From positions 1 through 22,964 of the forward strand of contig JBHLLU010000061.1 in the NCBI GenBank assembly GCA_048938895.1: 22,964 nt of DNA, read 5' to 3'. Position 1 is the first letter of the stretch; the number at the start of each line of letters is the position of its first letter. The translations under genes and the position numbers were made by a program. The DNA is from Promethearchaeota archaeon. Lineage in GTDB: Archaea > Asgardarchaeota > Lokiarchaeia > Sigyniarchaeales > SOKP01. Below, one piece after another: positions 6,377-16,478 of the stretch. The notes below the pieces were generated by a model, which saw only the letters and a program-made list of their open reading frames with translations, was not told where the DNA came from and searched no databases.

Positions 6377-6550
6377 ATCTTTCTTTATTCTATTTTATAA
6401 TTTAATAATTCTTGATTTTACAAAATCTAAATAAGAGATTTTAAAGAAAGAGTTTTTCGGAGTTAACAAGTAACCTTTAAAATTTTGGTATTTTATTTTT
6501 AATAACTACATTCAATTCTTAATAAAAAAATAAATTAAATAGTGAAAAAC

Positions 6551-12387: not shown

Positions 12388-12428
12388 GTATTTTTTAACA
12401 TTTTTTTTATCCTTTTTATAATTTTTAA
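12388..12428 (+). terminator. Archaeal-type oligo-T terminator
   Basis: T6, T8 and T5 tracts directly after the stop at 12387. Confidence 0.5.
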
Positions 12429-12697: not shown

Positions 12698-14674
12698 TTG
12701 TCTGAGAAACAGACCAATGAAAATATGAACGAAGATCAACCAAGAATAGGTGTGTTCGTGTGTCATTGAGGTATCAATATAGCAGGAATCTTAGATATCC
12801 CTAAAATCGTCGAAGAAATAGATAAATTAGATAATGTTTGGGCTTATCCATATCTATCGTTATGTACTGAAGGTGGATCGTCTGAAATTAAAGAAAAGCA
12901 TGAAGAAAGGAAATTTAATCGGGTTTTAGTAGCAGCATGCACTCCAAAGACTCATCAGCCGGTATTTCATGCTATTTTAACAGAGATGGGATTACCGCCA
13001 AGGTATCTAGAATTTGTAAACATTAGAGAGCATTGTTCATTTGTACATCAAGCTCCAGAAGTCCGAGAAAGAGCCACATTAAAAGCAATCGAATTAATTA
13101 AAGCAGGAATTGCAAGAGCAAAATTATTAGAAGACGTCCCAACTAAGACAGTTCCCGTAGAACCTACAGCTTTAGTAGTTGGAGGAGGAATAGCAGGATT
13201 ATCTGCAGCTATCGATTTAGGAGATGCAGGATATAAAGTGTATCTTGTTGAAAAAAATACGACTATTGGTGGTCGTATGTCTCAACTTGATAGAACTTTT
13301 CCTACAGATGATTGCTCAATATGAATCTTGGGACCTAAGATGCTTGAAGCAAATCGTCATCCAAATATTGAGATTCTTTCCTACAGTGAAGTTGAGGAGG
13401 TAGATGGCTACATTGGTAATTTTGAAGTGAAAGTAAGACGAAAAGCTCGGTTTGTTGATGAAGATAAGTGTACAGGGTGTGGAACATGTACAGATGTATG
13501 TCCGGTTTATATCAGTAATTATTTTGACGAAAATCTTTCAGCTAGAAAGGTAATTGACATTGCATTCGCTCAAGCAGTACCAGCAGTTTCACAGCTAGAT
13601 AGAAAAGCATGCATTGAATGTTTTGCTTGTGTAGATGCATGTGAACAAGAAGCGATAGATTTTAGTCAACAAGATAAGATTGTGGAACTTAAAGTAGGTA
13701 CTATCATAGTCGCCACTGGATGGGACCTCTATGAAGGTGATGATTATGGGTATGGCATCTATGATAACGTTATCAATCAGATAGAACTAGAAAGAATACT
13801 TGCCCCAAATGGTCCAACGTATGGCCATTTAAAACGACCATCTGACGGTAAACGCCCAACAAAAATATTATTCATAAACTGTGTCGGTTCAAGAGATGTT
13901 AATAAAAATGCCCATTGTAGTGTTATTTGTTGCAATCTTTCTCTTAAAAATTCAAAATTAATCAAATCTGAATATCCTGACTCACAAATTGTTTGTACAT
14001 ATATAGATATGCGATGTGCAGGAAAAGACTATGAAGAATATTATAGGAGATCTCGAAATGCAGGTATAATCTTTGTAAAAGGTTTGGTTGGAAAAGTTGA
14101 AGAAGATCCATTAACTAAGAACCTTACAGTACAATTTGAACCTGTGGGTACTGATTCTGTTGTAACAATGGAAGTTCACATGATTGTAACTTCACCAGCT
14201 TCACTTCCATCTCAGGGTACTATAGAGATTGCTAAAGTATTAAACATGGAAAAAAGTCCTGATGGATTTTTAAAGGAATACCATGCAAGGCTTGATCCTA
14301 TTAGTACTAAAGTACCAGGAATATATATCTGTGGTTCAGCTCAGGGACAAAAAGAAATTGATAAAGCAGTAAGTCAAGCTAGAGGTGCAGCATCTGTAGC
14401 TGGAATTCCGATGGGAAAAGGAGAGTATACTATGGAGTTAATTCGGGCTACCCCCTCCGATGAACGTTGTGCTAAATGTTATAAATGTATAGAAGCATGC
14501 CCATATAACGCAATATCTGTAAATGAATCTGGTAATCTTGTTGTCGATCTTATCAATTGCCGAGGATGTGGAACTTGTGCTTCATTATGTCCTTCAAAAG
14601 CAATTGAATTAACGTATTTCAGAGATGTTCAATATATGGCTTTATTAGACGAATTATTACCAATTGAGGAGTAG
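12698..14674 (+). CDS. hdrA: Heterodisulfide reductase subunit A, selenoprotein with two in-frame UGA (Sec) codons
   Basis: One continuous frame from TTG 12698 (or ATG 12725): ...PRIGVFVCH-TGA(12767-12769)-GINIAG...AACTPKTH...NIREHCSFVH...GGGIAG...TFPTDDCSI-TGA(13322-13324)-ILGPKM...CSVICCNLSLK... to TAG at 14672-14674. Both TGAs align to conserved HdrA Cys (CHCG and CxxC). This joins ORF-track fragments 12986-13324 and 13328-14674. Confidence 0.93.
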
Positions 14675-14690
14675 AGAGGTAGAAAATAAA

Positions 14691-15149
14691 ATGGCAACTG
14701 AAAATGATATAAAAATTATTGTCTATGCTTGCTGGAAATGAGGATATGGTTCAGCTGATATGGCAGGTACTATTCGTGCACAATATCCGGACTCAATTCG
14801 AAATATATTAGTACCGTGTTCTGGAAGAGTAGGATGCGATCTGATAATGCGAGCGTTTGGTAGAGGTGCTGACGGTGTTGTTATAAATGCTTGATACCCT
14901 GGAGAATGCGATTACGAGACAGGAAACTATTATGCATACCGACAAGTCGAATATGTTAGGGAAATATTAAAAGCTGTAGGAGTAAGTCCAGACCGGATAA
15001 AAATAATATATTGTACAGCAGCAGAAGGTCAAAAGTTCCAAAACGAAGCAATTGAATTCGACAAGACCATACGTAAGTTAGGACCAAGTCCCTTACGAAT
15101 AAAGAGCACACCTAAGAAAGGGGAAGCTAAGGCGAAAGCTAAAGCTTAA
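14691..15149 (+). CDS. vhuD: MvhD/VhuD [2Fe-2S] subunit, 152 aa selenoprotein with two in-frame UGA (Sec) codons
   Basis: Absent from the ORF track. Translation: MATENDIKIIVYACWK-U17(14739-14741)-GYGSADMAG...VPCSGRV...GADGVVINA-U68(14892-14894)-YPGECDYETGN...CTAAEGQKF...LGPSPL...KAKAKA-TAA. RBS GAGGT at 14676-14680. Confidence 0.93.
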
Positions 15150-15156
15150 AAAGTTA

Positions 15157-15231
15157 ATGTGTTTACTGATGAAGCTGAGTTAAAAAAAATGAGAACTCAT
15201 GCAGAAGAAATGGGTGCACCATATAACACAT
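15157..15231 (+). promoter_or_regulatory. Eukaryote-like SECIS element in the 3' UTR of hdrA-vhuD
   Basis: Helix I is ATGTGTT (15157-15163) with AACACAT (15225-15231). The 5' core is ATGA-A (15169-15173). Helix II is GCTGAGTT (15174-15181) with AACTCA-T-GC (15194-15202). The A-rich apical loop spans 15182-15193 and the 3' core is A-GA-A (15203-15206). It begins 7 nt after the vhuD stop. Confidence 0.8.
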
Positions 15232-15338
15232 AAAATAGTTTTTAAAATATAATAGAAATAGTATAAATTTATCAATAGTTTGTATATATAAGAAAAAGTA
15301 ATTTGTAAGTATTTATTTTACTTCAGAGTTGGAAATAT

Positions 15339-16478
15339 ATGGACGCAATAGCAGAATACCTAATTAAGATTGAAGATTTCTCTAAAATTTTAGTTACTTT
15401 ACTAAAGGAAAAAGTAGTAGACAAAATCATTGGAGCAGATTTACGAGTAGATAAAAAATCTGGAAATGTCGATAGATTCACAGTTCAACCAAAATTGGTT
15501 GAAAAAGAAGAGGATCTGTCAGATTTTCCATTATCACCGTTAATTGCATTTGGATATGCAAGAACAGATTCTGCATCAAAATTTCTCCATAAATCTGTAT
15601 CAGGTGCAATGAATGAAAAAGTAGGATTAATCGCACGACCTTGTGATACCAGAGCTTTAATAGAACTTGCTAAAATCAAGCAAATAAATCTTGATAATCT
15701 CTTTGTTATAGGTATAGAAGATAGAGGAATGCTTCCAAAAGCAGGACGAGAAATGCGAGCAATTAAAGATGTTGATCCTACGAAAATCGTGAAAGAAAAA
15801 GTTGGAGATAACGGTCTTATTGTTAAATTAGATGATGGAAGCAGCAAAGAACTTAAATTATCTGTTTCGGAAAATTGTCTGAGATGTTATCGCAAAATTC
15901 CTGTGGTTGCGGATTTAACTGTAAGTGATCTCGGGATACCAATAGATTCAGAGGACATAATTCTTAAGGTATATTCTGACAAGGGAAATAATGTTTTAGA
16001 AAAATCAGGGATAAAGAAGAAAAATCTTCCAGACAAGATGAAGAAAGAGCATACAGCAAAATATGAGGAAATCATTGAAAAAGCTAAAGAAAAAAGAGCA
16101 AAAGATTTAGAAGAATGGGATAAACTTTCTGAGGAAGAAAAAATCGCTGAACTCCTTAAATGTACAATGTGTAATACATGTATTCGAGGATGCCCAGTTT
16201 GCTACTGCGTGGATTGCATTCTTCAGAAAAAGAGAAAGGATAAAACAATTGATAAAGTTACCTATCAATTAACTCGAATAGCACATGATGCCGATCGTTG
16301 TGTAGAGTGTGGTAACTGTGATAATAATTGTCCTCAGAACTTACCCCTCTCACTATATTTTCAATCGTTAAATGAAGCATTTAAGGAAAAATTTGGCTAT
16401 GAGGCAGGTATGTCCTTAGAGGATATTCCATTTCGATCTGGAAAAGCAATAGCAGAGATGAAATTAGAAAAGACATAA
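15339..16478 (+). CDS. FdhB/FrhB-fold (FlxC-like) Fe-S protein with C-terminal ferredoxin domain
   Basis: ARPCDTRALIELAKIKQINLDN, ENCLRC...IPVVADL, KCTMCNTCIRGCPVCYCVDC and RIAHDADRCVECGNCDNNCP are typical of the formate dehydrogenase beta-subunit family. Confidence 0.82.
   Translation: MDAIAEYLIKIEDFSKILVTLLKEKVVDKIIGADLRVDKKSGNVDRFTVQPKLVEKEEDLSDFPLSPLIAFGYARTDSASKFLHKSVSGAMNEKVGLIARPCDTRALIELAKIKQINLDNLFVIGIEDRGMLPKAGREMRAIKDVDPTKIVKEKVGDNGLIVKLDDGSSKELKLSVSENCLRCYRKIPVVADLTVSDLGIPIDSEDIILKVYSDKGNNVLEKSGIKKKNLPDKMKKEHTAKYEEIIEKAKEKRAKDLEEWDKLSEEEKIAELLKCTMCNTCIRGCPVCYCVDCILQKKRKDKTIDKVTYQLTRIAHDADRCVECGNCDNNCPQNLPLSLYFQSLNEAFKEKFGYEAGMSLEDIPFRSGKAIAEMKLEKT

Follow-up and report, generated by a model that had tools for sequence, protein, structure and literature searches.

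A probable eukaryote-like SECIS element shared by four UGA codons in the hdrA-vhuD tandem of an Asgard archaeon

Just downstream of an hdrA-vhuD tandem from an Asgard archaeon lies an element (positions 15157-15231 of the window, i.e. of the whole stretch of 22,964 nucleotides analysed here) that is very probably an Asgard-type, eukaryote-like SECIS, located in the 3' UTR of a bicistronic mRNA and serving four UGAs. For Lokiarchaeota, as for other Asgard archaea, such a reading of hdrA-vhuD has already been published. The main text of Mariotti 2016 (Mol Biol Evol 33:2441, PMC4989117) describes a single lokiSECIS per HdrA-VhuD tandem, downstream of VhuD, each element serving as many as six UGAs spread over about 2 kb. 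In the main text of Huang 2024 (ISME J 18:wrae111, PMC11227280), a single eukaryote-like SECIS past the end of vhuD, named eSECIS-like type I, is assigned to both hdrA and vhuD/frhD of Asgard archaea, and the relevant part of a 2026 review repeats the shared-SECIS model.

Neither bacteria nor methanogens nor eukaryotes offer a counterpart to one 3' element that recodes the UGAs of two successive cistrons over distances of up to 2.4 kb, and a shared SECIS bears on the origin of the eukaryotic Sec system. As this point about origin was made in 2016 and 2024, the window represents a further well-documented case and not a discovery. Three things are added here: a negative search for a second signal with full-model scoring; a contrast within one genome between four Sec tandems and a lone Sec-hdrA, which have the element, and ten Cys paralogues, which lack it; and a candidate three-helix architecture, which could guide the design of a first functional assay and is the only lead that may go beyond the literature.

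The element and the genes that precede it

The coordinates of the two genes, of their UGA codons and of the parts of the element are gathered in Table 1. Both frames were read with TGA as selenocysteine (U). The product of hdrA matches the Fer4 (Fe-S cluster) and FAD/NAD-binding families of Pfam, and that of vhuD belongs to the Pfam family FlpD (E 1.8e-41). The distance of 16 nt between the two genes that was given in a preliminary description of this DNA is borne out. The gene that precedes hdrA encodes an aldehyde:ferredoxin oxidoreductase; the one that follows the element (15339-16478, 189 nt past the vhuD stop) codes for an FrhB/FdhB-like protein carrying a 4Fe-4S domain.

When the two proteins are aligned with their paralogues from this genome, all four UGAs fall opposite Cys or another UGA. 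The Cys-type paralogues have Cys at all four positions, and U24 and U209 of HdrA are aligned with Cys or Sec in the paralogues. Codon 209 is the HdrA Sec position that the main text of Mariotti 2016 (PMC4989117) calls 'canonical'. Orthologues carry TGA at the same four positions, and the UGAs of hdrA are retained in 38/38 full-length orthologues and paralogues. The genome from which the window originates (assembly of 4.65 Mb, 31% G+C, in which the window is contig C115) carries Sec machinery: a tRNA-Sec (anticodon UCA according to aragorn, 61.1 bits with RF01852) is found about 320 nt upstream of a gene encoding SepSecS (PF05889, 393.5 bits, E 1.1e-117), on the same strand (C51:105615-107184, locus L047).

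The assembly is of the metagenome type, with 174 contigs and an estimated contamination of 7.49%, and the TGAs could in principle be assembly errors, pseudogene lesions or the result of a general reassignment of UGA, the hairpin then being incidental. This explanation is scarcely credible, and is refuted as far as sequence tools reach, by the TGAs found at the same four positions in orthologues and replaced by Cys in paralogues, by the presence of tRNA-Sec and SepSecS, and by the integrity of the other genes of the window, none of which is interrupted by a TGA.

The preliminary description had placed a hairpin with an AUGA, an A-rich loop, a GA and two helices just past the vhuD stop. All these features are present, and the limits that it gave (15157-15231) are exactly those of the conserved block. 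The AUGA begins 19 nt past the vhuD stop and 2,400 nt after the end of UGA 1, which agrees with the distance of about 2.4 kb first put forward for the first UGA. The inner stem, P2, consists of nine positions, i.e. eight standard pairs and an A.A at the base, with one bulged U (U15200). The sequence on both sides of its base permits the kink-turn-type pairs G15171.A15205 and A15172.G15204. A further hairpin, P3, in which 15210-15213 pair with 15219-15222, was absent from the preliminary description. The folding energy of the element is -14.0 kcal/mol (z -1.67; 12/200 shuffles fold as well), and such energies discriminate it weakly (z -1.31 and -1.67 in two runs).

Table 1. Positions of the hdrA-vhuD tandem, its UGA codons and the parts of the downstream element in the window
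Feature	Positions	Strand	Description
hdrA	12698..14674	+	658 aa, TTG start, UAG stop; heterodisulfide reductase subunit A-like flavo/Fe-S protein; two predicted Sec codons
UGA 1	12767..12769	+	hdrA codon 24, motif VCHUG
UGA 2	13322..13324	+	hdrA codon 209, motif DCSIUILGP
Spacer hdrA-vhuD	14675..14690	+	16 nt, GAGG-type ribosome-binding sequence
vhuD/mvhD/frhD	14691..15149	+	152 aa, FlpD family, UAA stop; two predicted Sec codons
UGA 3	14739..14741	+	vhuD codon 17
UGA 4	14892..14894	+	vhuD codon 68
Whole conserved 3'-UTR element	15157..15231	+	very probable Asgard eSECIS-like / lokiSECIS, subtype of this orthologue group
P1 5' arm AUGUGUU	15157..15163	+	pairs with 15225-15231; 6/7 pairs invariant in 30 sequences
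AUGA core motif	15169..15172	+	invariant in 30/30 orthologous elements and 28/28 model elements
P2 5' arm	15173..15181	+	pairs with 15194-15203; U15200 bulged, A15173.A15203 unpaired
Apical loop AAAAAAAAUGAG	15182..15193	+	12 nt, A-rich start, ends AG
P2 3' arm	15194..15203	+	pairs with 15173-15181
GA of AUGA/GA core	15204..15205	+	immediately 3' of the stem
P3 side hairpin AUGG-GUGCA-CCAU	15210..15222	+	stem invariant, loop variable in 30 sequences
P1 3' arm AACACAU	15225..15231	+	pairs with 15157-15163
T5 tract	15239..15243	+	candidate archaeal transcription stop, 8 nt after the element

Conservation and association with UGA-containing genes

The preliminary description had tied its reading of the hairpin to conservation in orthologous loci. 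A search with VhuD retrieved 37 related loci from assemblies of Promethearchaeota (Asgard), and all 37 carry an AUGA...GA element no more than about 25 nt from the end of vhuD, with a stem that covaries. Two groups can be distinguished, which were aligned separately because a joint MAFFT alignment misaligned the AUGA. Group 1 includes 29 loci (76-93% VhuD identity) with a 72-75-nt block nearly identical to that of the window; the element is kept in 29/29 of these orthologous loci and the flanking sequence is variable. Group 2 includes eight loci (56-61% VhuD identity) with the same element layout and another sequence.

In the 30 orthologous sequences, 99.3% of the cells of P2 are paired and three of its nine pairs show changes on both sides; in the eight group-2 loci, six of nine do. 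Eight pairs are predicted from 17 diverse elements aligned without fitting, and all eight have changed on both sides. The A.A at the base of the stem of the window copy is replaced by A-U or G.U in 28 of the 30 orthologues, and the length of the loop ranges from 11 to 13 nt among orthologues.

A motif scan of the whole assembly from which the window originates detected 14 matches (2-8 in five shuffles). The ten matches with a 10-12-nt loop are all located from -44 to +20 nt from the end of a UGA-containing ORF. They include those of four hdrA-vhuD tandems (the one of the window on C115, two on C33 and one on C43), of a lone hdrA (C102), of a Prx-like gene and of four short ORFs without any Pfam match. 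The remaining four (10- or 13-nt loops, bulge) are found in or beside ORFs devoid of internal UGA, and their number fits the chance expectation. The ten Cys-type FlpD paralogues of the same genome, which include an all-Cys hdrA-mvhD tandem on C73, lack Cys-aligned UGAs as well as any credible element, and the gene upstream of them contains no UGA either. Likewise, the element is missing from 16 Cys-type vhuD loci in other genomes of the order, and the large ORF upstream of vhuD is free of internal UGAs in all of them.

These distributions bear on a second explanation, according to which the element would be a general 3'-UTR structure unrelated to selenocysteine, such as an L7Ae-bound kink-turn, a stability element or a terminator. 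The AUGA/GA motif is indeed kink-turn-like, a T5 tract occurs 8 nt downstream, and a chance-level Rfam match to a C/D-box sRNA (12.4 bits, E 2.5) overlaps the element. Nonetheless, a structure of this kind is very unlikely given that 10/10 good matches of the genome come right after UGA-containing ORFs, that the element is absent after the ten Cys-type paralogues and at the 16 Cys-type loci elsewhere, and that its features are those of the Asgard SECIS published in the main text of Mariotti 2016 (PMC4989117).

Some of the other loci of this genome deserve a description of their own. The tandem of C43 (C43:1209-3653, L040:1209-3675) pairs one SECIS with an hdrA that has five Cys-aligned UGAs and a vhuD that has two, i.e. 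seven UGAs per element versus up to six in the main text of Mariotti 2016 (PMC4989117), and the stop codon of its vhuD is a UGA within the AUGA core. The four UGA-containing short ORFs without Pfam match that lie beside a SECIS (C51:52039-52368, C99:40428-40940, C102:8486-8653 and one on the minus strand of C144; loci L041, L042, L043 and L045) include one with two adjacent UGAs and two with a predicted hydrophobic stretch. They may encode small selenoproteins outside the families given in the literature consulted here, their frames and starts being provisional.

A probable single signal for two genes

The UGAs of vhuD are located at ordinary distances from the element (430 and 277 nt), those of hdrA at 2.4 and 1.85 kb. 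A third explanation is that the element serves vhuD alone as a SECIS and that the UGAs of hdrA use another signal, or a transcript of their own with an unrecognisable signal. It agrees with the main texts of Mariotti 2016 (PMC4989117), Peiter 2022 and Peiter 2025 (PMC11881835), which report no SECIS shown experimentally to act across cistrons. A separate SECIS inside or upstream of hdrA is what the preliminary description had itself named as evidence against a shared element.

No separate SECIS was found inside or upstream of hdrA by any of three approaches (a covariance model, a methanogen-type pattern and folding of the sequences that follow the UGAs). The covariance model of the core, R1, was built from 28 elements, from which the element of the window and the bulged variants were left out. 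Applied to the window with filters off, it gives 15165-15209 a score of 34.1 bits (E 3.4e-6). The second-best match of the 22,964 bases, on the minus strand at 458-500, has 14.8 bits and was judged to be due to chance (E 0.2, within an ORF devoid of UGA). On the plus strand, nothing was detected at E <= 10 between 12388 and 15149, a region that covers the 310-nt spacer before hdrA, hdrA and vhuD. R1 was also run on 41 loci, related ones and those of the own genome (242 kb in total). Each contains a single strong match (36.8-59.5 bits), which immediately follows vhuD or, where hdrA stands alone, hdrA. An extra match at L001:689-733 (E 0.1), in an AT-rich spacer and not conserved in the window, was also judged to be due to chance.

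The methanogen-type GAA/A pattern has 14 loose matches in the window, versus 4-15 in 20 shuffles, and none of the 14 has a G/C-only upper stem. Shuffled sequences fold as well as the 64 nt downstream of each UGA (z +1.38, -0.33, +0.04 and +0.39 for the four), which give no sign of bacterial-type hairpins. Taken as a whole, these searches for Asgard-type, methanogen-type and post-UGA signals indicate that hdrA has no recognisable SECIS of its own.

At a threshold of E <= 10, no SECIS family of Rfam is matched by the window, by 15100-15340 taken alone or by nine other element-bearing loci; the weak Rfam matches that appeared in these scans include no SECIS family and were judged to be at chance level. 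Elsewhere in the window, positions 6423-6446 of the minus strand give a weak single-copy match to an Rfam CRISPR direct repeat (25.5 bits versus a gathering threshold of 37, E 1.6), which is most likely due to chance.

The layout of the locus is operon-like. The gap between hdrA and vhuD is 3-34 nt in 40/41 loci; in the last one, L031, no hdrA was found upstream of vhuD by the script. In the window, no T5 tract occurs between 14272 and the SECIS, spacer and vhuD included. The only T5 tract inside hdrA is at 14267, and four tracts of at least five T are clustered at 12391-12426, just after the gene upstream of hdrA. A scan for sigma-70 promoters and intrinsic terminators, whose models are not suited to archaea, remained at shuffle level.

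The stop codons of the two genes also differ. The 40 hdrA all end in UAA or UAG, without any UGA in their C-terminal halves, and 5/41 vhuD (those of L024, L029, L030, L033 and C43 of the own genome) end in UGA. In the main text of Mariotti 2016 (PMC4989117), action of the element on hdrA is argued from the same contrast, which is weak here (0/40 versus 5/41), because related loci are not independent. In three of the five vhuD that end in UGA, this stop directly precedes the AUGA of the SECIS, which fits the idea of a minimal distance put forward in the main text of the same paper.

The lone hdrA of C102 (C102:50776-52857, L044:1277-3358) has two UGAs, no vhuD next to it and its own SECIS 11 nt past its stop. 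Since a Sec-hdrA without vhuD has its own element, the UGAs of hdrA seem to need a 3' element in cis. Its motif sequence is closest to that of the hdrA of the second C33 tandem. The combination of a Sec-hdrA, a Cys-vhuD and a retained element was not found among 16 Cys-type and four one-UGA vhuD loci taken from the matches listed.

An element restricted to vhuD is therefore unlikely: no other signal of the three types sought is found in or upstream of hdrA, there is one element per locus in 41/41 loci, the UGAs of hdrA are nonetheless kept in all the full-length orthologues and paralogues, and a Sec-hdrA devoid of a vhuD neighbour has an element of its own. We rather infer that hdrA and vhuD are on a single transcript and that the SECIS acts across the cistron boundary.

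Under this reading of a shared SECIS, recoding can be viewed as follows. The AUGA/GA core at the base of the nine-position stem probably forms a kink-turn-like motif, as its sequence would allow. The core and the A-rich loop would then, most likely, recruit the Sec-specific elongation factor with Sec-tRNA(Sec), directly or through an adaptor. The ribosomes would subsequently read the four upstream UGAs, two in hdrA and two in vhuD, as selenocysteine. The Asgard SECIS elements are known from bioinformatics only according to the text of Peiter and Rother 2025 (PMC11881835), which also indicates that a lokiarchaeal SECIS was not functional in Methanococcus maripaludis, and no published experiment showing any Asgard SECIS at work was found in the literature.

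Helical architecture and comparison with known SECIS elements

Asgard SECIS elements of this family could possibly be three-helix junctions and not simple two-helix hairpins, even though this proposal is more doubtful than the identification of the element itself. From 5' to 3', the junction would tentatively be made of the outer helix P1, of the AUGA/GA stem P2 and of P3, which follows the GA and precedes the 3' arm of P1. All three helices are predicted by RNAalifold from an unfitted alignment of the 30 orthologues, and the same layout, with another sequence, is found in the eight group-2 loci. Unconstrained folds also contain the three helices in 7/10 elements of the own genome. From one element to another, the geometry of P1 and P3 is constant and their sequences differ.

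R2, a three-helix covariance model for which only the eight group-2 loci were used, detects all nine of the other elements of the own genome (39-84 bits). In the alignment of these nine elements to R2, 19/20 pairs are changed on both sides, a figure that leans towards the model because the alignment was fitted to it, and 92.5% of cells pair, versus 64.6% in shuffles and at most 50% with slid partners. An alignment-free geometric rule, written after seeing the data, recovers the layout in 8/10 elements of the own genome; in 500 shuffles of the flanks it does so in 0.42 elements on average and in three at most. A control based on the folding energy of the flanks gives a weak result (mean z -1.29), which counts against the proposal.

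Sixty-one genomes of the order were scanned with R2. All 41 genomes of the family to which the window belongs have one to nine matches, and the 19 genomes of three sister families have none. As these sister families have UGA-containing vhuD yet no R2 match, their SECIS must differ in sequence; an example of such an element is L066:3784. Even with filters off, R2 does not match the element of the window itself, which is read as a sequence subtype and not as an absence of the architecture. Within the orthologue group of the window, P1 and P3 are invariant, so that conservation alone speaks for both of them there.

The main texts of Mariotti 2016 (PMC4989117) and Huang 2024 (PMC11227280), as distinct from their figures and supplements, describe a lower stem and an internal loop and make no mention of a side hairpin, and a search of the full-text literature gave no paper joining SECIS, Asgard and 'three-way junction'. 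The outer helix and the 3' side hairpin that recur around 8/10 SECIS of the own genome may thus be an unreported detail. P1 and P3 may be part of what is recognized by the Asgard SECIS-binding factor, and they might be needed for the long-range action across cistrons.

The closest known system is the lokiSECIS, defined in the main text of Mariotti 2016 (PMC4989117) by an AUGA, a 9-bp stem, an 11-nt loop and a GA; the loop has an A-rich start and its final G usually follows an A. The element of the window shows each sequence and position feature of the Asgard lokiSECIS / eSECIS-like type I, in keeping with the preliminary description, which had assigned it to the eukaryote-like elements described for Lokiarchaeota. 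It has the AUGA before a nine-position stem, the A-rich loop ending in AG and, directly after the stem, the GA, in place of which this type may also have AA, and it lies a few nucleotides past the vhuD stop, with one copy per tandem. The tandem itself resembles those of lokiSECIS loci, as its hdrA has more than one Sec and hdrA ends in UAA or UAG. It differs from the published lokiSECIS by its 12-nt loop (one extra A compared with the published 11 nt), its bulged U and its A.A, and its orthologue group has P1 and P3 sequences of its own.

The AUGA/GA core, the unpaired apical A's and the 3'-UTR position are shared with eukaryotic SECIS (RF00031, SECIS_1), as is the action at a distance on several UGAs, which is predicted in the case of the window element. 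Unlike eukaryotic SECIS, this element has a shorter upper stem and an extra side hairpin between the GA and the outer helix, would be carried by a polycistronic mRNA, and has no match to the Rfam model at E <= 10. In addition, SBP2 was not detected in Lokiarchaeota and none is known in Asgard archaea, according to the main text of Mariotti 2016 (PMC4989117).

Compared with methanogen and bacterial SECIS, the difference noted in the preliminary description holds: neither the GAA_A bulge and G/C-only stem nor hairpins after the UGAs are found. Methanogen-type SECIS, in which an asymmetric GAA_A bulge separates a long G+C-rich stem from a 3-bp G/C stem, share the 3'-UTR position with the window element, but such a bulge with a G/C-only upper stem is not found near the genes. 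In Methanococcales, hdrA adjoins vhuD and the SECIS of vhuD carries an AUGA, as stated in the main text of Mariotti 2016 (PMC4989117). Finally, bacterial SECIS have in common with the element of the window the recoding of UGA to Sec, which is predicted for the latter; they are found inside the ORF just after each UGA, whereas the element of the window is located in the 3' UTR.
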